Shown piece after piece: positions 4,166 to 46,348 of a DNA stretch of 64,000 nucleotides; position 1 is the stretch's first letter; every line of letters starts with the position of its first letter. The notes beneath the pieces are model-generated. The model was given only the letters and a program-made list of their open reading frames with translations. It was not told the DNA's origin and made no database searches. The translations under genes and the position numbers were made by a program. The stretch comes from a virus: IMG/VR virus record IMGVR_UViG_3300020172_003394, positions 22,229 to 86,228 of that record; one strand, written 5' to 3'.

Positions 4166-4251
4166 TAGTTTCAGGGGGTGTGTTGGTATGAGAAAGTCTA
4201 TGAATATTGAAAAGATTTTAAAATACATCAATCAACACCCCCTGAAAGCTG
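4166..4251 (+). ncRNA. candidate structured ncRNA A (long irregular hairpin)
   Basis: TAGTTTCAGGGGGTGT pairs with ACACCCCCTGAAAGCTG; inner GTAT/ATAC and AAAGTCT/AGATTTT. Confidence 0.45.
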
Positions 4252-4298
4252 TGTGTATTTGTGAGAAAACTCAGACGGAAACCTCGGAAAGAGATACC

Positions 4299-4379
4299 GC
4301 TACCTTCGCATAGTGGGATTGCACTTTCTTGGTAAGAAAGAGCCGTAAGGCAGAGTGAGTTCGATTCTCACAGGTAGCT
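4299..4379 (+). tRNA. tRNA-Thr(GGT) with long variable arm
   Basis: acceptor GCTACCT/AGGTAGC; CTTTC-TTGGTAA-GAAAG; V-arm GCC-GTAA-GGC. Confidence 0.85.
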
Positions 4380-4386
4380 TTACACT

Positions 4387-4458
4387 GCCCTGATAGTGTA
4401 ATGGAGAGCACGATTGTCTTCGGAACAATTAGTAAAAGTTCGAATCTTTTTCGGGGCA
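4387..4458 (+). tRNA. tRNA-Arg(TCG)
   Basis: ATTGT-CTTCGGA-ACAAT; AT-rich T stem. Confidence 0.85.
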
Positions 4459-4463
4459 CTTAT

Positions 4464-4537
4464 ACCCTCGTAGCTCAGCTGGATAGAGCATCAGACTTCT
4501 AATCTGAGGGTCAGAGGTTCGAATCCTCTCGGGGGTG
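4464..4537 (+). tRNA. tRNA-Arg(TCT)
   Basis: TCAGA-CTTCTAA-TCTGA, canonical D/T loops. Confidence 0.95.
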
Positions 4538-4541
4538 TTTT

Positions 4542-4628
4542 GGTGCGGTGGTAGAGAGGTTGAATGCACGGGATTGCAAATCCTGCTAGTGGAAACACTA
4601 CACGCCGGTTCGAATCCGGCCCGCACCT
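4542..4628 (+). tRNA. tRNA-Cys(GCA) with long variable arm
   Basis: GGTGCGG/CCGCACC-U73; CGGGA-TTGCAAA-TCCTG; V-arm TAGTG-GAAA-CACTA. Confidence 0.9.
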
Positions 4629-4644
4629 CTAACAAGGAGAAAAT

Positions 4645-5250
4645 ATGTCGTTTCGGATAACAACACGAGTACATAGTGTAAAAAAAGATATACTACCATT
4701 TGCATACGTGGATGATATTTTTACTCCAGAAGAGTTGCAACGGGTCGTTGATTACTGTGATAATTTACAATTGATAGATGCTACGATTGGGCAAGGAAAA
4801 TTAGCACCACAATATAGAAAATCAAAAGTTAATCAATTTAAGGTGAATAAAGAAAACGAGTGGATATTTGAAAGGTTGCAAATAGCCACCGAATATATGA
4901 ATAATGAGTTTTTTAGATTTGATTTAATTGGGTTCGACCAAATACAGTATACTGAGTATAGAGATGACAACAACCTATATGATTTTCACGTAGACTGCTA
5001 TATGGGACACGATGTTCCATTAGATCATTCATATCCAAGAAAGCTTTCATTCAGCTTAATACTTTCTGACAATACCGAATACACGGGTGGTAAATTTGAA
5101 GTGATGTACTCCAAAGTACCGGAAGAAGTAACACAAAAAAAAGGCAGACTTCTAGCATTTCCGTCTCATATGTTGCATAGAGTTACACCTGTAATAAAAG
5201 GAACTAGAAAATCTCTTGTGTTTTGGGTGATAGGACCAAAGTTCAAATAG
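4645..5250 (+). CDS. 2OG-Fe(II) oxygenase (PKHD/prolyl-hydroxylase-like)
   Basis: HVD...RKLSFS...FPS...HRVTPV..GTRKSLVFW. Confidence 0.9.
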   Translation: MSFRITTRVHSVKKDILPFAYVDDIFTPEELQRVVDYCDNLQLIDATIGQGKLAPQYRKSKVNQFKVNKENEWIFERLQIATEYMNNEFFRFDLIGFDQIQYTEYRDDNNLYDFHVDCYMGHDVPLDHSYPRKLSFSLILSDNTEYTGGKFEVMYSKVPEEVTQKKGRLLAFPSHMLHRVTPVIKGTRKSLVFWVIGPKFK

Positions 5251-5259
5251 GAATACTAT

Positions 5260-5469
5260 ATGAAAAAAATAAATATTGAAGTTATCAAAAATATAATATC
5301 GATTATAATCGCATATGGTGCACTAATTATTGTAGCCGCGGTATTACTTTTTACTGCAATAAATAAAACAACTAACGACAGCAAAGAACATGACAGTAAA
5401 ACGCAAGTAGAAAATACGGTGTTGGAAAGTGGTAACATTGAGAATGCTATAAAAACCAATCAATACTGA
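5260..5469 (+). CDS. small membrane-anchored protein
   Basis: N-terminal hydrophobic helix. Confidence 0.55.
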   Translation: MKKINIEVIKNIISIIIAYGALIIVAAVLLFTAINKTTNDSKEHDSKTQVENTVLESGNIENAIKTNQY

Positions 5470-5750
5470 TGAAAAAAATTTTATTTACAAAACCAATTAC
5501 ACTATCCGAAACTGCAGAACACAGAGTCCATACACGTAAGTGGTGGGCAATTCTTATCTTGATTATTGGTGGTCTTTTATTGGCAGGACGAGCACCAGTT
5601 CCGATGTCGTTAAGTTATACTCTTTTGTTCTTTGGCCACGCAGGAATGTTGCATAGTTTTTGGGAAAAACGGGATTACCCTATGGTTATCGTCAATCTTG
5701 TTTGGCTTGGTGTTGATGCCTTGGGGTTCATACGATGGTGGAATATGTAG
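5469..5750 (+). CDS. small membrane protein
   Basis: three hydrophobic segments; translationally coupled. Confidence 0.65.
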   Translation: MKKILFTKPITLSETAEHRVHTRKWWAILILIIGGLLLAGRAPVPMSLSYTLLFFGHAGMLHSFWEKRDYPMVIVNLVWLGVDALGFIRWWNM

Positions 5751-5932
5751 TCAAATCTCCATGCATAAAAGTATGTAAATTACATAAAAATTCATGCATA
5801 GGGTGTCATAGGACTGTAGAAGAAATCAAAAAATGGAATAAATATTCAAACTTGACAAAAGTTTGGGTATGGGTTAAATTATATATAAGACGATATGACC
5901 AGAACTTGTGGAACCTGTACAAAATGTTGTGA
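5735..5932 (+). CDS. DUF1289-like Cys-rich protein
   Basis: SPCIKVC...CIGCHRTVEEIKKW. Confidence 0.75.
   Translation: MVEYVVKSPCIKVCKLHKNSCIGCHRTVEEIKKWNKYSNLTKVWVWVKLYIRRYDQNLWNLYKML
5852..5880 (+). promoter_or_regulatory. sigma70-type promoter
   Basis: TTGACA-N17-TAAATT. Confidence 0.55.
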
Positions 5933-6314
5933 TGGGTGGTTATCTGTTGAAGTATACGGTAATAAAGTAAATGTTGGCAATCCGTGTATCTTCAAAAAAG
6001 AAAGTTGTGGATGCTCTATATATCAAGACAGACCTATCACATGTAAAGAATTTTTGTGTGGGTGGATCAGAGATGATGGTACGCTGTTTGAAGAATGGAT
6101 GAAACCAGATGTAGTTAATTTTATTCTAGTGTACTATAAAGTAGAAGAACTTAATTGGTATAAATTAGTTCAAGCAGGTGAAGATATAAACACGTTGATG
6201 TTAAGTTACGTTATACAAAAAGCACTTCGACAAAATATTAATTTGGAATACTGGATCGGTAATACACAATTTTTAATTGGGTCGGAAGAGTTTAAAAAAT
6301 ACGTAAAGCATTAG
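5895..6314 (+). CDS. YkgJ-like Cys-cluster protein
   Basis: CGTCTKCC...C...GCSIYQDRP..CKEFLC. Confidence 0.75.
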   Translation: MTRTCGTCTKCCDGWLSVEVYGNKVNVGNPCIFKKESCGCSIYQDRPITCKEFLCGWIRDDGTLFEEWMKPDVVNFILVYYKVEELNWYKLVQAGEDINTLMLSYVIQKALRQNINLEYWIGNTQFLIGSEEFKKYVKH

Positions 6315-6316
6315 TC

Positions 6317-6390
6317 GGCAGGGTAGCTCAGTTGGTGAGAGCGCACGACTCATAATCGTGAGGTCGAGGGTTCGAATCCCTCCCCCGCTA
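6317..6390 (+). tRNA. tRNA-Met(CAT), elongator type
   Basis: CACGA-CTCATAA-TCGTG; GGC.../...GCT-A acceptor. Confidence 0.9.
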
Positions 6391-6394
6391 TCAA

Positions 6395-6476
6395 GGGAGT
6401 GTTGCAGAGCGGCCAAATGCAGTTGACTGTAAATCAACCGTCTTAGACTTCGGTGGTTCGAATCCACCCGCTCCCA
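6395..6476 (+). tRNA. tRNA-Tyr(GTA)
   Basis: GTTGA-CTGTAAA-TCAAC, long V-arm. Confidence 0.95.
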
Positions 6477-6479
6477 TAT

Positions 6480-6553
6480 AGGCGCGTAGCTCAGGTGGTT
6501 AGAGCACTGACCTGATAAGTCAGGGGTCGCTGGTTCAACTCCAGCCGTGCCTA
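6480..6553 (+). tRNA. tRNA-Ile(GAT)
   Basis: CTGAC-CTGATAA-GTCAG. Confidence 0.95.
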
Positions 6554-6558
6554 TTTTA

Positions 6559-6630
6559 GCCCCGATAGCTCAATGGTAGAGCATGTGACTCTTAATCACC
6601 AGGTTGTAGGTTCGAGTCCTACTCGGGGCA
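6559..6630 (+). tRNA. tRNA-Lys(CTT)
   Basis: loop CTCTTAA. Confidence 0.95.
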
Positions 6631-6633
6631 TAC

Positions 6634-6706
6634 GCCAAGATAGCTCAGTTGGTAGAGCAGCGGACTGAAGCTCCGCGTGTCGGGGGTTCGACTCCCTCTC
6701 TTGGCA
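6634..6706 (+). tRNA. tRNA-Phe(GAA), G37
   Basis: GCGGA-CTGAAGC-TCCGC. Confidence 0.93.
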
Positions 6707-6712
6707 CTAAGG

Positions 6713-7084
6713 TTAAAGTGGTAATTCAGTAAGATTATTCTCTCGGTCTAAATACTTCATTTCGACCTTAACAGGATTAAATTCCTGAATGGCATTTACC
6801 ACAAGTTGTGGGTCAAGTGTACCGCAGGTATATACATCAAGTTGTAATAAACCAGGTGAGACTTCATCCCACACGTGAAGTGCGATGTGACTTGTTTCGA
6901 TGATGGCAACAGCAGTAAGACCACGATTACCAGCGACATCAAGATAGTTCGCAAATGGTCCCATCATAACTTTCATACCAATGGAAGAAATAAGTGTTTC
7001 CATCCAATGTATTGTAGTTTGTTTGTCTGTTGGTGGATTGGTGACTTCGGCACGAACGATAAGATGTTTATGAACGAGTGGCAT
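6713..7084 (-). CDS. speD: S-adenosylmethionine decarboxylase proenzyme
   Basis: KHLI...GLTAVAIIETSHIALHVW...QLDVYTCG. Confidence 0.85.
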   Translation of the reverse strand: MPLVHKHLIVRAEVTNPPTDKQTTIHWMETLISSIGMKVMMGPFANYLDVAGNRGLTAVAIIETSHIALHVWDEVSPGLLQLDVYTCGTLDPQLVVNAIQEFNPVKVEMKYLDRENNLTELPL

Positions 7085-7153
7085 ATTACATATCCTTTGT
7101 TATAATGTTGTTAGTAAATATATAAGTATTAACGGTATATAAGGAAAATTATA

Positions 7154-7249
7154 ATGAAAGCAGCAGTTATTACATTTTTAATAATAGCTATTAGTATAAG
7201 CTTGACAACCGCGTGGATAGCTATTATATTAGAAAGGGACGAGTTTTAG
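7154..7249 (+). CDS. 31-aa hydrophobic peptide
   Basis: AAGGA RBS; MKAAVITFLIIAISISLTTAWIAIILERDEF. Confidence 0.4.
   Translation: MKAAVITFLIIAISISLTTAWIAIILERDEF
7202..7230 (+). promoter_or_regulatory. sigma70-type promoter upstream of tRNA-Trp
   Basis: TTGACA-N17-TATATT. Confidence 0.75.
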
Positions 7250-7319
7250 GTCCATAGTGTAATTGGCAACACAACAGTCTCCAAAACTGTTTTTCAAGGT
7301 TCGAGTCCTTGTGGGCCTG
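7248..7319 (+). tRNA. tRNA-Trp(CCA)
   Basis: ACAGT-CTCCAAA-ACTGT. Confidence 0.95.
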
Positions 7320-7325
7320 TTTCAT

Positions 7326-7399
7326 TCCCAGGTAGCTCAGTTGGTAGTAGCAGCGCACTGTTAATGCGCGGGTCGGGGGTTCAAGTCCCTCCCTGGGAG
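7326..7399 (+). tRNA. tRNA-Asn(GTT)
   Basis: GCGCA-CTGTTAA-TGCGC. Confidence 0.95.
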
Positions 7400-7433
7400 C
7401 TTGTCGTATTTATTTTTCACAAACGAGGTTATT

Positions 7434-7691
7434 ATGAATTTGACACCGAATGATAAGTTGAAGTTGGAAGCAGCACTGAAGGATATGGCTACGTCTATGA
7501 CACGGGTAGCAGCAGAACGCGACCTACAGAAGAATGTGATTGGAGACATCTGTGAAGAACTCCAACTCAATAAGAAGGTGTTCCGTAAGTTGGCACGTGT
7601 GTATTACAAGCAAAACTTTGATGACGAAGTTGCAACGCATCAAGAGTTTGAAACCCTTTACGAGACTGTAACGCAAACTACTAAGCCCTAA
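7434..7691 (+). CDS. T4 DsbA-like double-stranded DNA-binding protein
   Basis: KKVFRKLARVYYKQNFDDEV...FETLYE; GAGG RBS before ATG 7434. Confidence 0.7.
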   Translation: MNLTPNDKLKLEAALKDMATSMTRVAAERDLQKNVIGDICEELQLNKKVFRKLARVYYKQNFDDEVATHQEFETLYETVTQTTKP

Positions 7692-7701
7692 GAGGTGACG
7701 T

Positions 7702-8145
7702 ATGAATCGGTTATGGATGTTGTTGTTCGTTTTCGGATGTACGGCACCAACCGAACCGCAGGTTACAAACTATCAATTAAATTTTGTAAAAGATGTAGAT
7801 ACAATTTTTGTTGATACCACGGCAATACAAATCACAAAGCATATTGGAGCGGTCACTAATATTCACGGCAGACGAATGGTATTGATAACAGGAAATATTT
7901 ACATCCAAGCAACTCCTGGATTTGGACATGTAGATACTCTACCTACGGTTAATCCAATATCGTATACCAACAACGGGTATGTAGGCACTGTATTTGGTGC
8001 CTTTCCAAGTATGGTAGGAATGACTGCAACCATTATTGCAAAAGTTGTAGATGATATACGAACACCTGAAGAATATAGGTATCCGCAACTTCGGCAAGTA
8101 TTGGCAGTGGATACGATGAAGATGGTTATTCTCCCACGCAAATAG
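7702..8145 (+). CDS. putative lipoprotein
   Basis: lipobox-like VFGC after hydrophobic stretch. Confidence 0.6.
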   Translation: MNRLWMLLFVFGCTAPTEPQVTNYQLNFVKDVDTIFVDTTAIQITKHIGAVTNIHGRRMVLITGNIYIQATPGFGHVDTLPTVNPISYTNNGYVGTVFGAFPSMVGMTATIIAKVVDDIRTPEEYRYPQLRQVLAVDTMKMVILPRK

Positions 8146-8150
8146 TAGTT

Positions 8151-8224
8151 GGGGTGGTAGCTCAATTGGTTAGAGCACTGCACTGTCACTGCAGAGGTTG
8201 CGGGTTCGATTCCCGTCCATCCCG
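8151..8224 (+). tRNA. tRNA-Asp(GTC)
   Basis: CTGCA-CTGTCAC-TGCAG, G73. Confidence 0.95.
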
Positions 8225-8248
8225 TTTTACACCACCAAGGAGTATTTT

Positions 8249-8443
8249 ATGAAACGTGTGTATTTGAGTAATACTGAAAACAAAATTGCTGGAGTATGTG
8301 GTGGATTTGCAGAATCATTAGGAATTGACCCCACACTCATCAGATTACTTTTTGTTGCAGCGTTTTTTTCACCACTTCCTGCAGTAATTTTTTATCTGCT
8401 GTGTTGGATAGTTATTCCACGAAATCCTGGATATAAGTCATAA
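8249..8443 (+). CDS. pspC: PspC domain protein
   Basis: NKIAGVCGGFAESLGIDPTLIRLLFV...YLLCWIVIP. Confidence 0.9.
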   Translation: MKRVYLSNTENKIAGVCGGFAESLGIDPTLIRLLFVAAFFSPLPAVIFYLLCWIVIPRNPGYKS

Positions 8444-9567
8444 TGAAATTATTATTGTTATCAACGTGTGGCAGAACAAAAGAAGCAGAAGATGTAAGTT
8501 ACATTAATTTATATCTTGCGTCTCTGAAAAAGCATGTTGTTCCTCATTACAATGTTAAAGTTATTTTGTTCAACAATGCATTAAATCAAAATTCTAATGA
8601 AAGTTTGACTTGGCAAAGAGTTCAAGAGTTTGGATTAGAAAATATTGTTGAAGTAAAAAACATGTATGAAATGGGACTACCGCAAAAATCGTTAGAGTTT
8701 CTTGATAATATGCACTGGTTTTCCAAGATTGGAATAAATATGAATATGTTATTTGATTATTCAAGAAACCATAATTTCTTTGATGCAGATTGGGTTTTTC
8801 ACTTTGACACGGATTTAGAATTTTTACCAAACTTTCAATCGGTGTTTTCTAAAATTCATCCTATGGTGGAAGTAAATCCAGAAGTTATGATAACTGCGGC
8901 GGGTGACACATACCCATACAACATACGTTATCAGGACACAGAATTTATTTTTGATGAACCTGAACGGGTATACATGTACGACGAATCAACAGTTCATCAC
9001 AATTTTACTTTACGGCAATTGACAGTAAACCGTAGAGACGCCGACGCAACAGATGCAACTAGATATTCTGGTAGTGAAAAGTTATTTTTTAACTTACAAC
9101 AACAAAAAATAAGAAATGATTTTGTTGGATACTCCAGACAAGCGGCAAATCAACATACGTTCAACTGGATTTCGTGCCACTATCCAAACAATTATGAAGC
9201 AATTGGTAAATTAAAAGATAACGAAGATGCACATTTGTTGAAAAAATTGTGGGATGAAAAAACTAGTCCTAATTTTGAATTGTTTGTGAATCACGATAAA
9301 GGGTCACTACCACAATTCTTTTTACAAGGGTCGTCACATAATGTCGTAAAGGTACAACTTCGTGGTTATTTGGATATGGCAAGACATTATAGTTCTGGTT
9401 GGTATGCCGAAACACCGTTTGGGGCATACGCACAACAACGACTAAAAGAAGATTACACCGATACCCAGCATATTTGGGAAAAGGATTATTTGACAAGAGA
9501 AGAAATTGAATCTAGAATTTCTAATTTACAAAATGAAATTCAAAGATTACAAAATATGTTAAATTAG
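8443..9567 (+). CDS. hypothetical protein, possibly GT-A glycosyltransferase-like
   Basis: DWVFHFDTD (DxD) after N-terminal beta strand. Confidence 0.5.
   Translation: MKLLLLSTCGRTKEAEDVSYINLYLASLKKHVVPHYNVKVILFNNALNQNSNESLTWQRVQEFGLENIVEVKNMYEMGLPQKSLEFLDNMHWFSKIGINMNMLFDYSRNHNFFDADWVFHFDTDLEFLPNFQSVFSKIHPMVEVNPEVMITAAGDTYPYNIRYQDTEFIFDEPERVYMYDESTVHHNFTLRQLTVNRRDADATDATRYSGSEKLFFNLQQQKIRNDFVGYSRQAANQHTFNWISCHYPNNYEAIGKLKDNEDAHLLKKLWDEKTSPNFELFVNHDKGSLPQFFLQGSSHNVVKVQLRGYLDMARHYSSGWYAETPFGAYAQQRLKEDYTDTQHIWEKDYLTREEIESRISNLQNEIQRLQNMLN
9490..9518 (+). promoter_or_regulatory. sigma70-type promoter upstream of tRNA-Ser(ACT)
   Basis: TTGACA-N17-TAGAAT within the 3' end of a CDS. Confidence 0.6.
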
Positions 9568-9573
9568 TAGTTG

Positions 9574-9658
9574 GGACAGTTGGCTGAGTGGTCTAAAGCA
9601 GGAGATTACTAATCTCTCGTACTGAAAGGTACCGTGGGTTCGAATCCTACACTGTCCG
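9574..9658 (+). tRNA. tRNA-Ser(ACT)
   Basis: GGACAGT/ACTGTCC-G73, long V-arm, GGAGA-TTACTAA-TCTCT. Confidence 0.9.
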
Positions 9659-9674
9659 TTTAATGGAGATTGTT

Positions 9675-9785
9675 ATGGCAACACATAAAAGAAAAGGACA
9701 TACTAGAAAGCCAAGAAAATCTTGGCAAGCTAGTATAAAAGTAAAATCAACAACTGTTAAAAATCCGCGCAAAAAACGTAAATAA
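9675..9785 (+). CDS. 36-aa highly basic peptide
   Basis: GGAG RBS; MATHKRKGHTRKPRKSWQASIKVKSTTVKNPRKKRK. Confidence 0.6.
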   Translation: MATHKRKGHTRKPRKSWQASIKVKSTTVKNPRKKRK

Positions 9786-9808
9786 TTAGTATTTATTTAG
9801 GAGAGGGC

Positions 9809-9837
9809 TTGACAATCGGCAGTCCACTAGTTATATT
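9809..9837 (+). promoter_or_regulatory. sigma70-type promoter
   Basis: GGGC-TTGACA-N17-TATATT-ACT. Confidence 0.8.
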
Positions 9838-9854
9838 ACTGGTGTAGGGTAAAC

Positions 9855-9928
9855 GCCTCCATAACTCAATTGGTCAGAGTAGCTGGCTTTTAACCAGTAA
9901 GTTCTAGGTTCGAGTCCTAGTGGGGGCA
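9855..9928 (+). tRNA. tRNA-Lys(TTT)
   Basis: GCTGG-CTTTTAA-CCAGT. Confidence 0.95.
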
Positions 9929-9957
9929 CTGTTGATTAACAATAGAAGGTCAGTTGT

Positions 9958-10140
9958 AGAGCTTACCCGTGGTAGGAGAATCCCCACGCTACACGATTCA
10001 TCCAAGCGACCCTTACGTGAAGTATCACTACAACGATACAGGGGAAGTATCCGTAAGTAGTAGTCCTCGTGTTTAGACAAACGTTCGGTGAGGATGGCAC
10101 CAACGATAATAGGTAAGTTCTTCTCTATAAAATGAGAGGA
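9958..10140 (+). ncRNA. candidate structured ncRNA B (multibranched)
   Basis: closing AGAGCTTACC/GGTAAGTTCT with at least 5 nested helices; no ORF in the track. Confidence 0.6.
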
Positions 10141-10159
10141 TACAATAAGTCATCCATAC

Positions 10160-10242
10160 GCCCTGGTGGTGGAATGGCATACACAGAGCACTTAAAATGC
10201 TCCGGTCTTACGACCTTGCGAGTTCGAGTCTCGCCCTGGGCA
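10160..10242 (+). tRNA. tRNA-Leu(TAA)
   Basis: GAGCA-CTTAAAA-TGCTC, long V-arm. Confidence 0.95.
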
Positions 10243-10258
10243 TCAGCAGGAGAACAAT

Positions 10259-10423
10259 ATGATTAAGTATTTGGTAAAAATATATTTTGTAGGTGGGGTC
10301 ACATCGTTTATATATTACGCAGCAGAAGCAACCGAGGCTATTACACAGTTTCGTAATGACCCGGATGCACAAAAGTTGTTAGAAGGAAAAGTATTGACAC
10401 ATTATGAGGTAGGACCTGTATGA
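10259..10423 (+). CDS. small hypothetical protein (54 aa)
   Basis: AGGAG RBS; MIKYLVKIYFVGG... Confidence 0.55.
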   Translation: MIKYLVKIYFVGGVTSFIYYAAEATEAITQFRNDPDAQKLLEGKVLTHYEVGPV

Positions 10424-10518
10424 GTAATATAATTTTAGGTGGTATCTGTATATTGTTTGTATTACTCAGTATATGGTTTTCTCTTGTAGTACATCATCGT
10501 TGGGGACGTAAGAAATAA
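10420..10518 (+). CDS. 32-aa membrane peptide
   Basis: ATGA overlap; MSNIILGGICILFVLLSIWFSLVVHHRWGRKK. Confidence 0.5.
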   Translation: MSNIILGGICILFVLLSIWFSLVVHHRWGRKK

Positions 10519-10524
10519 ATTGTT

Positions 10525-10596
10525 GCGGGTGTAGCTCAGTGGTAGAGTCCGTGCTTGCCAAGCACGTTGTCGTGGGTTCGAATCCCATCGCCCGCT
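10525..10596 (+). tRNA. tRNA-Gly(GCC)
   Basis: CGTGC-TTGCCAA-GCACG, U73. Confidence 0.95.
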
Positions 10597-10608
10597 CTTG
10601 GAGAATTT

Positions 10609-11184
10609 ATGTTTGATATGTTTAATAGAGTAATCTCACAACGAGGTTACACAAGATACTTGGAAATCGGTGTTAGTAATGGTGGAACATTCTATAATAT
10701 AGAATGTCAAGTAAAGCATGGTGTGGATCCTAACAACAAGGATATACTTTACCCCATTACCTCCGATGAGTTTTTTGAAAACTGTAATCAAACATATGAT
10801 TTAGTTTTTATTGATGGTGACCACGAGTGTAATCAAGTGTTACGAGATATTAATAATAGCATCCAACACTTGTCACCAAATGGTATCATTTTTATTCACG
10901 ATACAAAACCGCACACCGAATTGATGCAACGGTCACCAATGCCACCTTCGGAAAAATTGTGTGAACGTGGGTTGTGGACTGGTGATGTGTGGAAAGCTAT
11001 CGCAAAATTTAGAAGTACAAGAACAGATTTTACAGTTAGAACATTTAATATAGAACTTGGTTTAACTATACTAGAAAGAGGTGAGGAGACGCTGATAGAA
11101 ATACCAGAAGAACTCACTTACGAGTGGTACTTGACAAACCAAGATTACGTGTTAAATTTAATTCCGTACAATACGGGCCTGTAG
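10609..11184 (+). CDS. class I SAM-dependent methyltransferase (Methyltransf_24-like)
   Basis: YLEIGV..G; DLVFIDGDH; GIIFIHD. Confidence 0.85.
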   Translation: MFDMFNRVISQRGYTRYLEIGVSNGGTFYNIECQVKHGVDPNNKDILYPITSDEFFENCNQTYDLVFIDGDHECNQVLRDINNSIQHLSPNGIIFIHDTKPHTELMQRSPMPPSEKLCERGLWTGDVWKAIAKFRSTRTDFTVRTFNIELGLTILERGEETLIEIPEELTYEWYLTNQDYVLNLIPYNTGL

Positions 11185-11247
11185 CTCAGCTGGGAGAGCG
11201 CCTGATTTGCATTCAGGAGGTCATCGGTTCGATCCCGTTCAGGTCCA
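11175..11247 (+). tRNA. tRNA-Ala(TGC)
   Basis: G3-U70; CCTGA-TTTGCAT-TCAGG. Confidence 0.95.
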
Positions 11248-11250
11248 TTT

Positions 11251-11335
11251 TAGTCGGTCATTGAGGGTGTAGTCACTCAGTCCTATGTCAGAGAAATCTG
11301 TTATGTCTGAACCTACAAGCGACCTGAGCCGACTA
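11251..11335 (+). ncRNA. candidate structured ncRNA C (rod with GAAA tetraloop)
   Basis: TAGTCGG/CCGACTA, TGTAG/CTACA, TCAG/CTGA, CAGA-GAAA-TCTG; fills the Ala-Val spacer. Confidence 0.55.
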
Positions 11336-11338
11336 TCT

Positions 11339-11412
11339 GGGTGGTTAGCTCAGCTGGTTAGAGCATCGCTTTTACACAGCGAGGGTCGGGGGTTCGAGTC
11401 CCTCACTACCCA
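11339..11412 (+). tRNA. tRNA-Val(TAC)
   Basis: TCGCT-TTTACAC-AGCGA. Confidence 0.95.
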
Positions 11413-11431
11413 TTCACCATAAGGAGGTTAT

Positions 11432-11638
11432 ATGAGACAACGTGTTATTGAAATGTTACGGTCACAAGCAGAAGCAGAACGTCAGAAGGCATTACTTTCA
11501 CTTGACCTTTTGATGGAACGTTCGGTTGGTATTGGTGACCATTCCACAGGTGATTTTTATAAGAACGCTGAAGAAGCATTACAGATGCTTGTTGACGCTG
11601 ACGATAAGATTGAAGCATTAAACAAGTATTTTAATTAA
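11432..11638 (+). CDS. small phage protein
   Basis: AAGGAGG RBS; VGIGDHS motif. Confidence 0.7.
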   Translation: MRQRVIEMLRSQAEAERQKALLSLDLLMERSVGIGDHSTGDFYKNAEEALQMLVDADDKIEALNKYFN

Positions 11639-11645
11639 GTTTGTC

Positions 11646-11717
11646 GCGGGTGTCGTATAACGGCTATTACCCCAGCCTTCCAAGCTGGTGACGAGGGTTC
11701 GACTCCCTCTACCCGCT
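11646..11717 (+). tRNA. tRNA-Gly(TCC)
   Basis: CCAGC-CTTCCAA-GCTGG. Confidence 0.95.
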
Positions 11718-11721
11718 CTTT

Positions 11722-11805
11722 GCTCTTGTGACGGAACCGGCAGACGTAGCGGACTCAAAATCCGCCGCCCTCAAAGGCGTGTGGGTTCGACTCCCACCGA
11801 GAGCA
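11722..11805 (+). tRNA. tRNA-Leu(CAA)
   Basis: GCGGA-CTCAAAA-TCCGC. Confidence 0.95.
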
Positions 11806-11808
11806 TAA

Positions 11809-11881
11809 CGGGGAGTAGCTCAGTTGGTAGAGTGCACGCTTTGGGAGCGTGATGTCGCAGGTTCGAGTCCTGTCTCCCCGA
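11809..11881 (+). tRNA. tRNA-Pro(TGG)
   Basis: C1-G72; CACGC-TTTGGGA-GCGTG. Confidence 0.95.
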
Positions 11882-11899
11882 CTCAATAGGAGAATAGTT

Positions 11900-12223
11900 A
11901 TGGAAAAAATTATAGAAGAATATTTTGATGCTTTTGTTAACAAAGATTTGCAAAAGTTATCGTCGCTGTATGATGACAATATTGTGTTGTCTGAATGGGA
12001 TGAAAACATCTTTACTGGAAAGGAAGCTGTTTTAAAAGCGAATGAAGAACTATTTAATAAGTTCAAGGATATTGGTGTTGTGGTGAAAGCACGTGCATCA
12101 CAAAATAATCGTTCGTTGAATGAAATAGTGGTACACCTAGACGATGTTGAAGTCAAGGTAGTTGATAGCATTACTGTGGTAGATGGAAAAATTATCGGTA
12201 TAATGGCATATCGTGGATTCTAA
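11900..12223 (+). CDS. SnoaL/NTF2-like protein
   Basis: YFDAFVNKDL..L..LYDDNIVL..W....GKEAV. Confidence 0.75.
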   Translation: MEKIIEEYFDAFVNKDLQKLSSLYDDNIVLSEWDENIFTGKEAVLKANEELFNKFKDIGVVVKARASQNNRSLNEIVVHLDDVEVKVVDSITVVDGKIIGIMAYRGF

Positions 12224-12233
12224 TATTAAACGA

Positions 12234-12241
12234 TATTTATA
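12234..12241 (+). promoter_or_regulatory. putative late promoter TATTTATA
   Basis: recurrent intergenic motif. Confidence 0.55.
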
Positions 12242-12281
12242 TTGTAATACGGTTCTGTAAATTTACACTAGAGAAAAATAT

Positions 12282-12968
12282 ATGAAATACGCAGTATTTT
12301 CAACTTATAGAACAGCCAGTACTTTATTGCATGATATGGTACGAAACCATTTCGACCTTACGGGTTTAGGAGAGTTAACAGGGCAATCACCGTTAGATAT
12401 ACGATTAGATGATGCGTTACGTCATCAATATATCAACGAAAAAATTGCAGAAGATAACTACGTTGTAAAATTATTTTCGTCTGATTTTACACCAAACAAT
12501 TATTGGTTTAATAAAGAAACGTTTGACTGGTCAAGATTTGAAAAAATAATAATCAGTACACGAGCAAACGTAACAAACCAATTAGCAAGTGTGTATTATA
12601 TGAAAGTTTATAATACAGGAGAACAAGAACTATTTCCGATAAATACAACTCCTGAAGCTATAGATTTTTCAAATGAACATTGGATGAAAATTATGGAGTT
12701 TATGAGAAAATCATTACTACGACTTCATAGTATCAAAGATGAGTTATTAACGCAATATCCAACAAAGGTATCGGTGGTACCATCGGAAATTTTCCGTGAT
12801 GAACCATCAGAGTTTTTACCAATAGTAAATTCATTAACTGGTATTAATTTTGTAGAAGCTAATTTAACACCAACAAATTCGTTTGTTACAGGACTAAACT
12901 ACTCCGAAAAATATACTAATTATAATGATTTAAAAGCAATAGTAGATTCGTGGGGAATTCCAAATTAG
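12282..12968 (+). CDS. sulfotransferase-like protein
   Basis: STYRTASTLL PAPS-binding-like loop; TRANVTNQLAS. Confidence 0.55.
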   Translation: MKYAVFSTYRTASTLLHDMVRNHFDLTGLGELTGQSPLDIRLDDALRHQYINEKIAEDNYVVKLFSSDFTPNNYWFNKETFDWSRFEKIIISTRANVTNQLASVYYMKVYNTGEQELFPINTTPEAIDFSNEHWMKIMEFMRKSLLRLHSIKDELLTQYPTKVSVVPSEIFRDEPSEFLPIVNSLTGINFVEANLTPTNSFVTGLNYSEKYTNYNDLKAIVDSWGIPN

Positions 12969-12971
12969 GGC

Positions 12972-13000
12972 TTGACATTTGAGTAGAAGTTAGGTATATT
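12972..13000 (+). promoter_or_regulatory. sigma70-type promoter
   Basis: GGGC-TTGACA-N17-TATATT-ACT (same flanks as 9809). Confidence 0.8.
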
Positions 13001-13004
13001 ACTT

Positions 13005-13115
13005 GTGTGGTCAGCAAGAGAGCGGTAACGACTAACAGGTTTCACAGCGATACTCGATATCGCAGACGAGTTATAAGTGCACTTAGGAACTCGTCGGCTG
13101 AGTTGGTGACCACAC
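13005..13115 (+). ncRNA. candidate structured ncRNA D, starting near the promoter +1
   Basis: GTGTGGTCA/TGACCACAC closing stem; GCGATA/TATCGC; GACGAGTT/AACTCGTC. Confidence 0.65.
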
Positions 13116-13120
13116 ATTAC

Positions 13121-13192
13121 GCCGCTTTCGTCTATCGGTTAGGACATAGCCCTTTCAAGGCTAGAAGGCGGGTTCGATTCCCGCAAGCGGTA
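13121..13192 (+). tRNA. tRNA-Glu(TTC)
   Basis: TAGCC-CTTTCAA-GGCTA. Confidence 0.93.
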
Positions 13193-13208
13193 CTACAACA
13201 AAAAATAT

Positions 13209-13282
13209 CCGCCAGTGGCCAAATGGTGAAGGCAGCGGTCTTATATACCGAAGATGTGTAGGTTCAAGTCCTACCTGGCGGA
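13209..13282 (+). tRNA. tRNA-Ile(TAT)
   Basis: CCGCCAG/CTGGCGG-A73; CGGT-CTTATAT-ACCG; canonical T arm. Confidence 0.85.
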
Positions 13283-13305
13283 CTTGGTTATTGTGGTGGG
13301 TAGTA

Positions 13306-13379
13306 GGGCCGTTAGCTCAGTCGGTTAGAGCACGCGACTCATAATCGTGCGGTCCTGGGTTCAAGTCCCAGACGGCCCA
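13306..13379 (+). tRNA. tRNA-Ile2(CAT) (lysidine type) or Met
   Basis: GGGCC/GGCCC-A acceptor typical of Ile2; loop CTCATAA. Confidence 0.85.
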
Positions 13380-13402
13380 TTTTAAATTAGGAGATACCGT
13401 AA

Positions 13403-13495
13403 ATGCCACATCCAAAAAAGTGCGGAAAGGGTCGTCGTAAGATTGGCTCGAAGAAACGCAACAATCGTTGGAAAAATAGAAAGCGTAAGCATTAA
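13403..13495 (+). CDS. 30-aa highly basic peptide (bS22/bTHX-like composition)
   Basis: AGGAG RBS; MPHPKKCGKGRRKIGSKKRNNRWKNRKRKH. Confidence 0.65.
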   Translation: MPHPKKCGKGRRKIGSKKRNNRWKNRKRKH

Positions 13496-13499
13496 TATC

Positions 13500-13718
13500 T
13501 ATCCGAGGCCTTTACCCTACCTTTCACCTCGTTAACAGCCTTCGGGCGAATGGAAAGTCTTTAAAATGATAGGGCGGGGCTGGAGTCGTTATGACCAGAC
13601 ACGTTTGACTAGTTTGGTGTATGGATAAACTAGTAGGCGGTTGGGGAAACTTGACGGAGTTGTGTGTCCGCCTAAATACTTGTAATAAGTGAGTTGATAT
13701 CTCACAACACATCCCCCA
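13500..13718 (+). ncRNA. candidate structured ncRNA E
   Basis: GCC-TTCG-GGC, ACTAGTTT/AAACTAGT, TAGGCGG/CCGCCTA, GTGAG/CTCAC; GC-rich; abuts tRNA-Gln. Confidence 0.5.
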
Positions 13719-13719
13719 T

Positions 13720-13790
13720 TGCCCCTTCGTCTAACGGCAAGACGCTAGGCTTTGGACCTAGCTATCGTGGTTCGAATCCACGGGGGGCAA
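13720..13790 (+). tRNA. tRNA-Gln(TTG)
   Basis: CTAGG-CTTTGGA-CCTAG; U1-A72. Confidence 0.93.
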
Positions 13791-13834
13791 TTGTAGTAAA
13801 TGGTTATTTAATTTTAATTTAATGGAGTATTATA

Positions 13835-14011
13835 ATGTACAAGTTCATTCTTGCAGTAGCAGTAGTTGCGTTGGCCGCATGTGGTTCGGTAAAGACCGAA
13901 GAAGCTTCAACAACGGATAGTACCGCAGTTGCTGCACCAGTATTAGACACCGTAGTAGTTGCGGATTCAACCGTAGTCACCGCACCAGTTGACGGTCCTG
14001 CTCAAAAGTAA
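13835..14011 (+). CDS. small lipoprotein (58 aa)
   Basis: GGAG RBS; lipobox LAAC; Ala/Thr/Asp-rich tail. Confidence 0.75.
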   Translation: MYKFILAVAVVALAACGSVKTEEASTTDSTAVAAPVLDTVVVADSTVVTAPVDGPAQK

Positions 14012-14023
14012 TCAATAGTATTT

Positions 14024-14094
14024 GCGGTTCTAGTGTAATAGATAGCACGGTAGGCGTCCAGTCTACAAGTCCGGTGCAACTCCGTGGAACCGCT
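14024..14094 (+). tRNA. atypical tRNA-Gly(TCC)-like RNA
   Basis: GCGGTTC/GAACCGC-U73; D-loop lacks GG; loop CGTCCAG (G33); T-loop TGCAACT with bulged stem. Confidence 0.7.
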
Positions 14095-14101
14095 CTAATT
14101 T

Positions 14102-14188
14102 GTAAGAACAATCTCATGCGAGGTGTGGCGCACTCGTTGTGGTGGCGGGAAGAGTAGTATTAACTACTTGAAAGGGATTTGTTCTTAC
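14102..14188 (+). ncRNA. candidate structured ncRNA F (three-way junction)
   Basis: GTAAGAACAA/TTGTTCTTAC closing; GCGAG/CTCGT; AGTAGT/ACTACT. Confidence 0.55.
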
Positions 14189-19921: not shown

Positions 19922-20639
19922 GTTAGGTAAAGTCTACTTTACGCAAGAAACAGAAGATGCAATTATCAAATACAACCAAAGTGATGATGTGGAAGAAAGA
20001 GAATATCTATATCGTGAGTATATTTGGGCACCATTCGATAAATTGGCAGAAAATGTAATCAACAGATTTAAGTTCCCATATATGGAAGGCTCTTTTGACG
20101 ATATTAAGTCAGAAGTAGTCTCCTTTTTGGTTATCAATCTGCATAAATTTGCTAGTGGGAAAGGAAAAGCATTCTCATACTTTAGTGTGATTGCAAAAAA
20201 TTATCTTATATTACATAATAACAACGCATACAAAGAAGAAAAGAGGTCAGTGTATCTTGGTGATAAGACCGATGAGACATTTTCATTAGAAGAAATCCTT
20301 GTATCAGAACCAGAAGAGCACGAAATTAAGAGTGACATGCGAGATTTTATTCATCTCCTTGTGCAATATTGGGACTTCAATACCACTAAGATTTTTAAGA
20401 AGAAGCGAGATATAGAAATCGCTAATGCAGTGGTTGAACTTCTTCGTAGAGTTGATAATATCGACAATTTTAACAAAAAAGCTCTCTACTTAATGATTAG
20501 AGAGATGACGAATCACAAAACATCCCATATCACTAAGGTTATCAATAAGATGCGGGCACACGTTTTGGTCCAAATGAACGAATTTAGACGAACAGGACAT
20601 ATTTCCGACCCATCCGCATATTTTACGTATAAAAAATAG
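19902..20639 (+). CDS. phage late-transcription sigma factor (gp55-like)
   Basis: KF..GKGKAFSYFSVIAKNYL resembles sigma region 2. Confidence 0.65.
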   Translation: MGRTKVKLGKVYFTQETEDAIIKYNQSDDVEEREYLYREYIWAPFDKLAENVINRFKFPYMEGSFDDIKSEVVSFLVINLHKFASGKGKAFSYFSVIAKNYLILHNNNAYKEEKRSVYLGDKTDETFSLEEILVSEPEEHEIKSDMRDFIHLLVQYWDFNTTKIFKKKRDIEIANAVVELLRRVDNIDNFNKKALYLMIREMTNHKTSHITKVINKMRAHVLVQMNEFRRTGHISDPSAYFTYKK

Positions 20640-43172: not shown

Positions 43173-46100
43173 ATATAAGTGTTCCATTTAATAAACTCAA
43201 AAAAATAATTCATCTCGCAGATATTCATATTCGATTATTTAAGCGACACGAAGAATATAACGAATGTTTCCAAACTTTCTATAACCAGTTGCGTCAAGAA
43301 GATTTGACCGACTCGGTTATTGTCGTTGCTGGTGATATCGTTCACGCTAAGACGGATATGAGTCCTGAGATGGTGGTGATGGCTACGGAGTTCTTGAAGA
43401 CGTTAGCGGATATGGCATCCACCATTATCATCGCAGGAAACCACGACCTCAACTTGTCCAATATGAATCGATTGGATAGTTTGACCCCAATCGTCAATAG
43501 TATCAATCATAAAGACCTCCATTACTTTAAGCACTCTGGTGTTTACACGATTGCCGACACCGACTTTGCTGTATATTCCATTCTTGATGACAAGGAGAAG
43601 TGGCCTTCCCACAGGGATTGTTCATCTCGTCGAAAGGTTGCTCTCTATCACGGACCTGTGTTCGGGGCAACGACAGATGCTAAGTATACCATTACTAATC
43701 GACATGTAGATGTGTCGGCGTTCAATGGATTTGATATGGTCTTACTTGGTGACATCCATAAGCATCAAGTATTACAAGAACGAGACGCAGAAAATAAGAA
43801 GCCCGTAGTAGTTTACGCATCATCACTCATCCAACAGAACCACGGTGAAAGTCTTGATAACCACGGGTGGTGTATGTGGGATGTCCATAACTGCACCTTC
43901 CAGTTCCGTCAACTTCCAAATAACTACGGATATTATACTGTTGAAGTCCAAGGTGGGAAAGTTCCAGTTCTAACTGATGTTCCTAACAATGTTCGTATGC
44001 GGATATTCACGGGGAACCTTGATACCTCCGCGGTCAAGAAGTTGACGGCAGTATTACGAAAGCAACATAATATCATTGAGTTGAGTATCAACAAGTCGCG
44101 ATATGATAGTAGTAATCGTGAGAAGATGAAGAGCGGTATCGAAATTATCGATGTTCAGAACATCAATAATCAGAATCAACTCATCCAAGATTGGTTGGAA
44201 CGACAATACGATAATACAATTGATAAACCATTGATGGACAAAATCTTGGATGTAAATAAGAACTTAAACGCACAAATCAATCACGACGACCATTCTCGTA
44301 ATGTGAATTGGCGTCCTCTCCAACTGAAGTTTTCGAATATGTTCTCGTATGGTGACGACAATATCATCAACTTTGGTAAGATGAAGGGGATATATGGTAT
44401 CTTTGCCAATAACGCATCGGGTAAGAGTTCTGCGATGGATGCCCTTATCTTTACCCTTTACGATAAGACTCCACGAGCATTTCGTGGTGACCATATAATG
44501 AATAATAGGAAGGACACGTTTACCTGCCAGTTAAAGTTTGAAATCAACAATGAAATCTTCTATATCCGTAGAACAGGCACCCGTAAAAAGACGGGTGATG
44601 TAAAGGTTGATGTCTCATTCTGGCGGGAGAACGAGGACGGAACCCACGAGTCATTAAATGGTGAGGACCGCCGTGATACGAATGTCAACATCAGAAACTA
44701 TGTTGGAACCTACGAAGATTTCGTCCTAACTGCACTCAGTAGTCAGAATAGTAATGCTTTATTCATTGATAAGTCTCATAGTGAACGCAAAGACCTGCTT
44801 ATCCAGTTTATGGGATTAAGTATCTTTGACAAGTTATGTGACACCGCTAATGACGAGATGAAGGAAATCTCTGGGGCACTTCGTAAGTTTAAGAAGGTCG
44901 ATTTCTCTCAGACTTTATCCGATACACAAAGTAAGTTAGACGCCACCCGTGAGGAACACGAACGGGTAGAAGGGTTGTTCTCTAAGATTAAACAGGAACA
45001 GGAAACCCTCTACGAGAAGTTAAAGGGATTACAGGAACAAAAACGACCTGTCCCTAATATCGAACTGGATATTGATACCCTCTTATCTACGAAGGATAAG
45101 GTGGTCGAGCTTGCGGCATCCTACGAAGAAGATAAGGGTGAAGCAGAAGGACGATTACAATATATTCACGATACAATCGCAGAGAAAACAAAGGAAGTAG
45201 TGGATGCAAATATTCCAGAACTTCGAAACTCTGTTGAAGAATATAATAGATTATCTGACCTCTTTAATAAGGGTAGTAATGCCTTGAAGTTAACCACATC
45301 GAAGATTGGGGAAAAGGTAAAGTTCCAAATCAAACTCGACAGTTACAAGTATAATCCAGATTGTGATGTCTGTGTTGACAACAATAAATCAATTATCTCA
45401 GATAAACAACAAGTAGCACACGAGTTATTGGAGTTAGAAGAGGTGCGAATCAAGCAGACAGCTGCCATTGAAGAAATCAAACAGCAGATGGAACCCCTGG
45501 TTGATAAGGTCAATCTCTGTGCATACTACGAGAAGATACAGAGTGAAGTCCAACAACTCCAGAAGAAGGCAAGCGGGATTGAACTTGACATCCAGAAGAT
45601 ATTGACCAACATCGAAAAGTGTGACCGCAAGCGTGAGCAAGTGGAAAACGACATCGAACTTCATCGATCAAACAAAGAAAATATTGAATACAATATTGAG
45701 ATAGACAGTCGTGTTGACCATATCCAATATGACATCAATACATCCAAAAAGAAGGCTGACCATATGGAAAAGGTGGTTCGTGACTTGCATGGTGAAATCA
45801 AGGTCTTAGAAGCCACCAAGACAGACATTATGAACCAGATTAAGGAAGCGGAAGAGTTAGAAGCAACCTACGAGGCATACAAGTATTATATGGAAGCGGT
45901 TGGTCGTGATGGCATTCCATATGACTTGATGAGTAAGGCAATCCCGAACATTGAAGCTGAAATAAATAATATTTTAAGTCAAATCGTAGACTTCACCATC
46001 TCCCTCGAAGTGGATGGAAAGAACATCGTCGGTAAGTTAAACTACGATTATGACCGCGTATGGCCGTTGGAAAACTCATCGGGCATGGAACGTTTTATTA

Positions 46101-46348
46101 GTAGTCTGGCAATCCGTGTTGCCCTGATGAACGCATCCAACCTTCCAAAGTCCAATTTCTTGATTATTGACGAAGGATTGGGGACATTAGACGCAGAAAA
46201 TATGACTTCGATGCATACCTTATTCGGTATCTTGAAAGCACAATTCGATTTCCTTATCGTTATCAGCCATTTGGATGTGGTTAGAGATATGGTCGATAAT
46301 TTAATTGAGATAAAAAGAGAAGACGGATTCTCGTATATCCAGTCGTGA
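43169..46348 (+). CDS. fused SbcD(gp47)-SbcC(gp46) nuclease-ATPase
   Basis: DIH, GD, GNHD, GDIH; Walker A NASGKSS; hook CDVC; SGME; IIDEG; ISH. Confidence 0.92.
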   Translation: MNISVPFNKLKKIIHLADIHIRLFKRHEEYNECFQTFYNQLRQEDLTDSVIVVAGDIVHAKTDMSPEMVVMATEFLKTLADMASTIIIAGNHDLNLSNMNRLDSLTPIVNSINHKDLHYFKHSGVYTIADTDFAVYSILDDKEKWPSHRDCSSRRKVALYHGPVFGATTDAKYTITNRHVDVSAFNGFDMVLLGDIHKHQVLQERDAENKKPVVVYASSLIQQNHGESLDNHGWCMWDVHNCTFQFRQLPNNYGYYTVEVQGGKVPVLTDVPNNVRMRIFTGNLDTSAVKKLTAVLRKQHNIIELSINKSRYDSSNREKMKSGIEIIDVQNINNQNQLIQDWLERQYDNTIDKPLMDKILDVNKNLNAQINHDDHSRNVNWRPLQLKFSNMFSYGDDNIINFGKMKGIYGIFANNASGKSSAMDALIFTLYDKTPRAFRGDHIMNNRKDTFTCQLKFEINNEIFYIRRTGTRKKTGDVKVDVSFWRENEDGTHESLNGEDRRDTNVNIRNYVGTYEDFVLTALSSQNSNALFIDKSHSERKDLLIQFMGLSIFDKLCDTANDEMKEISGALRKFKKVDFSQTLSDTQSKLDATREEHERVEGLFSKIKQEQETLYEKLKGLQEQKRPVPNIELDIDTLLSTKDKVVELAASYEEDKGEAEGRLQYIHDTIAEKTKEVVDANIPELRNSVEEYNRLSDLFNKGSNALKLTTSKIGEKVKFQIKLDSYKYNPDCDVCVDNNKSIISDKQQVAHELLELEEVRIKQTAAIEEIKQQMEPLVDKVNLCAYYEKIQSEVQQLQKKASGIELDIQKILTNIEKCDRKREQVENDIELHRSNKENIEYNIEIDSRVDHIQYDINTSKKKADHMEKVVRDLHGEIKVLEATKTDIMNQIKEAEELEATYEAYKYYMEAVGRDGIPYDLMSKAIPNIEAEINNILSQIVDFTISLEVDGKNIVGKLNYDYDRVWPLENSSGMERFISSLAIRVALMNASNLPKSNFLIIDEGLGTLDAENMTSMHTLFGILKAQFDFLIVISHLDVVRDMVDNLIEIKREDGFSYIQS

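Follow-up and report, generated by a model that had tools for sequence, protein, structure and literature searches.

Conserved structured RNAs among the tRNA genes of an uncultured myovirus

Phage tRNA clusters are usually annotated as tRNA genes separated by junk spacers. Whether some of these spacers are genes in their own right is the question raised by a 64,000-nt stretch of viral DNA (hereafter the window), which comprises bases 22229-86228 of an 86-kb uncultured myovirus entry in IMG/VR, a record whose completeness CheckV estimates at ~48%. Baseplate wedge, large terminase and portal proteins are encoded, which marks the source as a large tailed phage whose baseplate is of the contractile-tail type; an SbcCD-like nuclease is encoded as well. 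The tRNA array of the window is real, with 29 tRNAs called by ARAGORN and 30 by Rfam, and many of its adjacent tRNAs lie only 2-7 nt apart, so that long spacers are conspicuous, as had been described. An earlier note on this DNA had singled out six of them (c1 to c6) as a set of unrelated structured RNAs interleaved with the tRNAs. Four, namely c2, c5, c6 and c3, are conserved in related phages, form covarying secondary structures, lie on the tRNA strand and belong to no known family, while c1 and c4 are orphans and do not stand on an equal footing with them. We consider it likely that the array carries at least four unrelated, conserved and structured non-tRNA RNA genes that act as processed RNAs.

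Relatives of the array were collected with the 374-aa protein encoded at 8443-9567 as an anchor, which recovered five IMG/VR and 15 metagenome contigs with the same tRNA order at protein identities of 39-89%; further phage contigs were added by motif scans. The window-like set is referred to here as group A, the contigs L171, L174, L193 and L194 as group B, and a more distant set with another tRNA order (L156, L173, L176, L178 and L180) as group C. Covariation was compared with controls in which the pairing partners were slid, and the minimum free energy (MFE) of each fold with that of dinucleotide shuffles. In Rfam 15, no spacer finds a match at the gathering score or at E≤5, in agreement with the earlier remark that no Rfam family could be recognised. 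Among GenBank phages, megablast of the whole array returns tRNA matches only, and distant blastn searches with c2, c5, c6 and c4 return none.

The c2 RNA extends over its entire spacer and not only over the interval 9958-10140 that had first been assigned to it. Its identity is 85-87% across group A and 76% in group B, and it is still recognisable in group C, at ~70% identity to group A; in the group A contig L168 it remains 85% identical though the anchor protein there is only 39% identical. Helices were derived by hand from compensatory changes and drawn on the alignment of groups A and B, from which model R1 was then built. The group C copies, absent from the training set, are detected by R1 at 97-107 bits. 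Across the 18-sequence alignment 97.5% of cells are paired, as opposed to 34-49% with slid partners, and compensatory changes on both sides occur in 22 of the 50 pairs (0-5 in the slid controls). None of 500 shuffles reaches the covariation score, and the G-U pairs are consistent with the plus strand. The consensus fold is a four-way junction in which a long-range helix, H1, encloses the H2 hairpin, a long arm (H3-H4-H5) and the H10 hairpin; H7, a further hairpin, lies outside H1, as does the closing helix H9 of groups A and B. The long arm holds the invariant strand CAGGGGAAG..UCCG, and the loop of H10 consists of seven invariant nucleotides, AGGAUGR. Tentatively, this loop forms a pseudoknot with the 3' tail, (Y)CAUCC: the two strands pair in 96% of cells and include one compensatory switch from G-C to A-U. 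A search for the c2 core motif in 185,579 species genomes gave four matches, none of which fits R1, and these are taken as chance.

The surroundings of c2 are conserved as well. On its 3' side, tRNA-Leu(UAA) follows directly in 17 of the 18 copies. On its 5' side, group C has a TTGACA-17-TATATT promoter standing in for tRNA-Lys, and the 5' end of c2 falls within a few nucleotides of the point where tRNA-Lys ends in group A. In L178 (5300-5480, minus strand) the tRNA-Leu(UAA) past c2 looks interrupted after the anticodon region by unrelated sequence, which could be an intron or an insertion.

The c5 RNA belongs to a module of fixed composition. The order tRNA-Glu/Ile/Met, a gene for a 30-aa basic peptide, c5 and tRNA-Gln is kept in more than 12 contigs, the stop codon of the peptide gene stands ~3 nt ahead of c5 in every copy, and groups A and C share 81-90% identity over the segment from peptide gene to tRNA-Gln. 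The peptide gene has a ribosome-binding site (RBS) and shows synonymous serine codon swaps (for instance TCG to AGT), which makes it a real gene; it is conserved in all three groups. A second very basic peptide gene with an RBS, of 40 aa, lies at 9663-9785 and occurs only in relatives with a long spacer between tRNA-Ser(ACU) and tRNA-Lys. Neither peptide has a match in Pfam, NCBIfam, PHROGs or the PDB sequences, and the ESM Atlas returns unnamed clusters only. In an alignment of 13 sequences, 11 of the 45 predicted c5 pairs covary; in one of eight sequences, 99% of cells are paired (41-48% when slid) and nine pairs show double changes (0-2 when slid). All of this covariation falls in the 3' domain, where a closing helix encloses four hairpins. 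The 5' domain, identical in all copies, comprises the pairings CUAUC/GAUAG and CGAGG/CCUCG and a GCC-UUCG-GGC hairpin; judged by its lack of variation, its sequence is under strong constraint. The c5 model, R2, detects the RNA in groups A and C and finds no match in group B, where the peptide gene is kept and the c5 slot holds an unrelated sequence of ~170 nt. This sequence was considered as a divergent c5 and dismissed, since R2 does not detect it. The slot itself (L181:2083-2260, minus strand; L193:3045-3221; L194:10309-10490, minus strand) contains tRNA-like fragments, for instance a T-arm-like hairpin, GGTTCTAGTCC. A further R2 match in the window, at 46036-46256, is weak (16 bits), lies inside the SbcC-like gene and is taken as chance.

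The two smaller RNAs are simpler in architecture. In c6, identity is 93-96% within group A and 79% in group B, five of 29 pairs covary over three of the four helices (none in slid controls), and 99% of cells are paired compared with 40-60% when slid. With model R3, each phage of groups A and B gives exactly one match to c6, and T4 and the group C loci examined give none. The upstream neighbour of c6, designated c6a and lying in the interval 14012-14101, is homologous to a tRNA-Gly(UCC) that ARAGORN calls in relatives; in the window it escapes both ARAGORN and Rfam. Position 33 is a G in this copy and its T loop is unusual; a variant 96% identical to it is present in a group C phage. For c3, members occur between tRNA-Ala and tRNA-Val in the window, L159, L160, L161 and L187, and at another site in L173. 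The usual site is empty (TAGT, 4-5 nt) in L007, L162 and L008, and in other relatives it holds unrelated inserts, one of which is a micro-ORF. The common core of c3 is an 8-bp helix, P1, with a bulged G, followed by an internal loop in which UUGAGGG faces AGCGACC; the inner hairpin varies in both sequence and length. Nine of 20 pairs covary, and 96% of cells are paired compared with 18-34% when slid. A purine string, GGGGAAG or GGGAAG, that appears in c2, c5 and c6 was considered as a common motif and set aside, as it is not conserved in c5 and c6.

Folding energy sorts the six intervals differently. Dinucleotide shuffles are beaten by c1, c4 and c6 (z -3.75 for the last) and not by c2 (z -1.0), c3 (z -1.6, not significant) or c5 (z +1.3). 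A weak score is to be expected of c2 because it is a pseudoknotted multi-branch RNA, and the energy test is a poor filter here; by that criterion alone c2 and c5 would be refuted, though they are the best-supported RNAs of the array. The six intervals that the earlier note delimited do exist as described, save for the wider extent of c2, and near-exact filling of a spacer between tRNAs holds for c2, c3 and c6, if the degenerate tRNA-Gly is counted as the upstream neighbour of c6. The picture of multi-helix folds closed by a stem needs amending for c1, which is one long imperfect hairpin, and for c5, which is built of two domains and not of one stem-closed unit. Conservation and covariation in relatives, which would be expected of such RNAs, are found for c2, c5, c6 and c3 and fail for c1 and c4, for which searches of the relatives, IMG/VR and GenBank phages gave no homolog. 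On balance the observation is partly confirmed and the interpretation that came with it partly supported. Coordinates are collected in the table.

Table. Positions in the window of the RNAs, promoters and peptide gene discussed in the text
Feature	Position	Strand	Remarks
c1, 86-nt long imperfect hairpin	4166..4251	+	MFE -31.9 kcal/mol, z -6.0; orphan
Sigma-70-like promoter TTGACA-17-TATATT	9809..9837	+	11/12 consensus; upstream of tRNA-Lys(UUU) and c2
c2 RNA, ~230 nt	9930..10159	+	whole tRNA-Lys(UUU)-tRNA-Leu(UAA) spacer; model R1, 18 loci
c3 RNA module, ~90 nt	11248..11337	+	between tRNA-Ala and tRNA-Val
Sigma-70-like promoter TTGACA-17-TATATT	12972..13000	+	11/12 consensus; upstream of c4 and tRNA-Glu
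c4, 111-nt stem-closed four-way fold	13005..13115	+	MFE -45 kcal/mol, z -5.1; between -10 box and tRNA-Glu; orphan
30-aa very basic peptide gene with RBS	13403..13495	+	directly upstream of c5; coding constraint in relatives
c5 RNA, ~220 nt, two domains	13496..13718	+	model R2; ends at tRNA-Gln 5' end
Degenerate tRNA-Gly(UCC) copy (c6a)	14024..14094	+	upstream neighbour of c6; not one of the six spacers
c6 RNA, 87 nt	14102..14188	+	four-way junction, 13-pair closing stem and three hairpins; just before tRNA-Ser(UGA)

How such RNAs would be made is suggested by the anatomy of the array. Four near-consensus promoters (TTGACA-17-TATATT or TAGAAT), all on the plus strand, stand ahead of tRNA blocks at 7202, 9490, 9809 and 12972. 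Lying on the tRNA strand downstream of such sigma-70-type promoters, c2, c5, c6 and c3 would most likely be transcribed together with the tRNAs, within polycistronic precursors, and released by tRNA processing. Their 3' ends would be set by the RNase P cut at the 5' end of the downstream tRNA, and their 5' ends by maturation of the upstream tRNA at its 3' end; in some relatives the 5' end of c2 would be set by transcription initiation instead. The tRNA maturation enzymes are the most economical account of the RNA boundaries. The released RNAs would be self-contained, folded and presumably stable molecules, and our best guess at their function is that they bind a protein or the translation apparatus; c5, which is genetically coupled to the 30-aa basic peptide gene, may be the partner or regulator of that peptide. 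Evidence of expression comes from the one public RNA run that shared words with the array, a lake-water metatranscriptome available as assembled contigs only. One of its contigs, 266 nt long and derived from a relative, spans 9992-10252, that is, the 3' part of c2 together with tRNA-Leu, at a depth of 20 as opposed to 7-10 for neighbouring coding contigs, and is compatible with expression of c2. The contigs leave the 5' domain of c5 without cover, a gap on which no weight is placed.

Several points weigh against this account. The covariation of c2 was counted on an alignment fitted to its own model, and the covariation as a whole draws on about three lineages (A, B and C) of related phages. 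The MFE scores of c2, c3 and c5 are no better than those of shuffles. Since the 5' domain of c5 never varies, covariation gives its predicted fold no test, and c5 could simply be a 3' untranslated region (UTR). The RNA evidence amounts to one assembled contig, for which DNA carry-over is possible and which, like all such contigs, shows no transcript ends. In L173 the place of the tRNA downstream of c2 is taken by a hairpin and a protein gene; RNase P therefore cannot set the 3' end of c2 there. That hairpin was considered as a terminator and rejected, because its T-run lies upstream of the stem, as would not suit a plus-strand terminator, and a protein gene comes next. Finally, no homology of c2, c5, c6 or c3 points to any function.

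The two orphans are of another kind. The c1 element lies 13 nt past the stop codon of a lineage-specific Big_2 gene, itself absent from the relatives too, and 48 nt ahead of tRNA-Thr(GGU). It folds into one hairpin of ~20 bp that contains a second, small one, and no homolog is found in the relatives or elsewhere in the genome, where it is single-copy. No intrinsic terminator is called at 4166-4251; past the stem the sequence reads GCTGTGTG, with no U-run. The c4 element is likewise single-copy and absent from all relatives, and its 3' 18-mer has no other exact copy in IMG/VR. In the relatives the promoter at this site stands 17 nt before tRNA-Glu; the window has the stem-closed c4, of 105 nt, in place of 11 of those nucleotides, and a lake RNA-library contig from a relative joins 12977 directly to 13121 without it. 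If transcribed from this promoter, c4 would form the 5' leader of the primary transcript and be cut off by RNase P. Inter-tRNA inserts restricted to single lineages are also seen in relatives, at L163:3034-3159 and L004:14514-14569, and these too are closed by stems, of 10 bp. Most likely, c1 and c4 are recent, lineage-specific, stem-closed insertions for which any function is unproven, and selection may favour inserts that fold on themselves and spare the neighbouring tRNAs.

Could all of these inserts act purely in cis, as self-folding punctuation of the precursor (insulators, nuclease entry sites, or protective leaders and ends) with no role once released? Nearly all inter-tRNA inserts, including the unrelated ones of relatives, are closed by a long terminal stem, c4 is placed as a promoter-proximal leader, c1 sets ~20 bp of double-stranded hairpin between an mRNA and the tRNAs, and most tRNA pairs manage with spacers of 2-7 nt, so the inserts are dispensable for processing. 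Mere insulators, however, would have no need of the long invariant single-stranded or loop sequences that c2, c5 and c6 keep (CAGGGGAAG, AGGAUGR and the whole c5 5' domain), which are better conserved than the neighbouring proteins, and c2 is retained with a promoter of its own where the upstream tRNA is absent; a role confined to the precursor strikes us as unlikely. Far less probable is the earlier note's proposal that the RNAs serve as decoys for anticodon nucleases or for other defences directed at tRNAs. The context would suit it: tRNA arrays are a known means by which phages counter defences that cleave tRNA, the RNAs are located in such an array, and c2 follows tRNA-Lys(UUU) in groups A and B. 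Yet none of the six scores as tRNA-like with ARAGORN or with the Rfam tRNA, tmRNA and Y-RNA models at E≤5, no tRNA- or tmRNA-like cloverleaf is called in any of the intervals by ARAGORN or RF00005, none carries a tRNA-like arm, and the consensus structures show no mimic of an anticodon loop or T arm. The least probable alternative, and one that was rejected, is a protein-coding gene on the minus strand of c2. That strand is stop-free over 49-78 codons in every copy, a composition effect of the purine-rich plus strand, which depletes stops. The open frame differs among groups A, B and C, is shifted by indels of 1 and 4 nt within group A, and has neither ATG nor RBS; substitutions in the helices are compensatory, and the G-U pairs fit only the plus strand.

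Two narrower alternatives concern single elements. The c5 RNA might belong to the peptide gene, either as a 3' UTR that stabilises or autoregulates a tiny mRNA or as the RNA component of a small ribonucleoprotein (RNP) formed with the peptide. The stop codon so close to c5 in every copy, the coding constraint on the peptide with its synonymous serine swaps, and the retention of the peptide gene in group B next to a different RNA of ~170 nt all suit this idea; moreover, tRNA processing on both flanks would free the peptide mRNA and c5 as a single molecule. The peptide has no detectable family, though, the replacement of c5 in group B indicates that it does not need this RNA, and a two-domain RNA of 220 nt is large for a stabiliser, so that we find the proposal doubtful. 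The other alternative sees c1 and c4, and perhaps c3 as well, as functionless palindromic insertions of selfish or accidental origin, either resembling miniature inverted-repeat transposable elements (MITEs) or recombined between flanking tRNA genes. It gains from the absence of c4 and c1 in all relatives, from the presence/absence polymorphism of c3, whose site elsewhere holds unrelated inserts or a micro-ORF, and from terminal inverted repeats of 9-20 bp. MITEs would also be multicopy and flanked by target-site duplications, and here each of the three elements is single-copy and c4 has no such duplication: the TTAC motifs that flank it are ancestral, and the insertion replaced 11 nt without duplicating any. 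A transposition of c4 with an ATTAC duplication was accordingly discarded, as the relatives already have both TTAC motifs. As for c3, its conserved internal loop and its helices, which covary across three lineages and two sites, argue for selection on the RNA. For the three together, functionless insertion is a possibility that we take seriously and still hold to be rather improbable.

Elsewhere in the array and beyond it, a few further features deserve mention. The additional tRNA in the Rfam count, at 2719-2792, is weak (35 bits in Rfam, missed by ARAGORN); in the corresponding region the relatives have a tRNA-His(GUG) 5 nt past tRNA-Leu(UAG). Outside the window, ARAGORN calls a tmRNA at bases 20204-20556 of the record, ~2 kb upstream of window position 1, with the tag peptide GNYNSPALALAA; tRNAs, a tmRNA and the new RNAs thus occur together in one phage. 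Other long inter-tRNA spacers, at window positions 7137-7246 and at L008:4018-4125, L161:3104-3233 and L007:8072-8263, contain micro-ORFs with strong RBSs, some of them encoding small hydrophobic peptides, and one such micro-ORF overlaps the promoter at 7202. The long spacers of these arrays are therefore a mixture of RNA genes and micro-protein genes.

Taken together, several RNA genes occupy spacers in this lineage of lake phages and are more strongly conserved than the adjacent proteins; two of the RNAs are as large and complex as ribozymes or RNP scaffolds typically are. With c2, c5, c6 and c3, new RNA families are added to a known niche; all are small, well-defined molecules with consensus structures and hence amenable to experiment, and c2 and c5 are complex enough to merit it. 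That c5 is near-identical where c2 has diverged, and that c3 and c4 are present in some phages and absent from others, suggests that the conserved tRNA genes act as homology arms through which cassettes of RNA genes or micro-ORFs are exchanged. A bolder version of the same idea would make c2 a new RNA class, a ribozyme or RNP scaffold acting on host translation or tRNA processing, c5 and its peptide a second RNP, and tRNA arrays carriers of exchangeable RNA cassettes. We see this as a long shot; if true, cassettes would be swapped by recombination between conserved flanking tRNA genes.

Among known systems, the ribosomal-protein mRNA structures that mimic rRNA sites offer an analogy, and only that, for c5, which lies on the same transcript segment as a tiny basic peptide gene; unlike in those systems, neither a ribosomal-protein family for the peptide nor an rRNA or ribosomal-protein leader model for c5 is found. 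Covariation-supported intergenic phage motifs, some of them tRNA-like, were mined from IMG/VR by Fremin and colleagues, with a mean length of 67 nt and a maximum of 151 nt (PMC10690425). Full-length c2 and c5 exceed that maximum, an argument from size that covers these two and not c6 or c3. GOLLD and ROOL are structured RNAs of phages and prophages, unexplained in function and often found beside tRNA islands (PMC12286853). The RNAs described here share that niche beside phage tRNAs but measure 87-230 nt as opposed to ~500-800 nt, and the Rfam models of GOLLD and ROOL do not match them at E≤5.

The closest precedent in layout, and one that the earlier note had aptly invoked, is bacteriophage T4, whose rnaC and rnaD (species 1 and 2) have remained without an explained function for decades (PMC3014915, PMC9697503). 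The tRNA region of T4 gives no match to models R1, R2 or R3, and the tRNA-like T arm of rnaC, GGGUUCGAAUCCC, has no counterpart in the RNAs of the window. The arrangement is nevertheless the same: small non-tRNA RNAs are encoded within the tRNA cluster of a myovirus, on the same strand as the tRNAs, and rnaD and rnaC stand only 1-6 nt from tRNA-Arg, much as c2, c3 and c6 abut their own tRNAs. The short list of unexplained phage RNAs that sit beside tRNAs, so far T4 RNA C and D, GOLLD and ROOL, is extended by the families described here.

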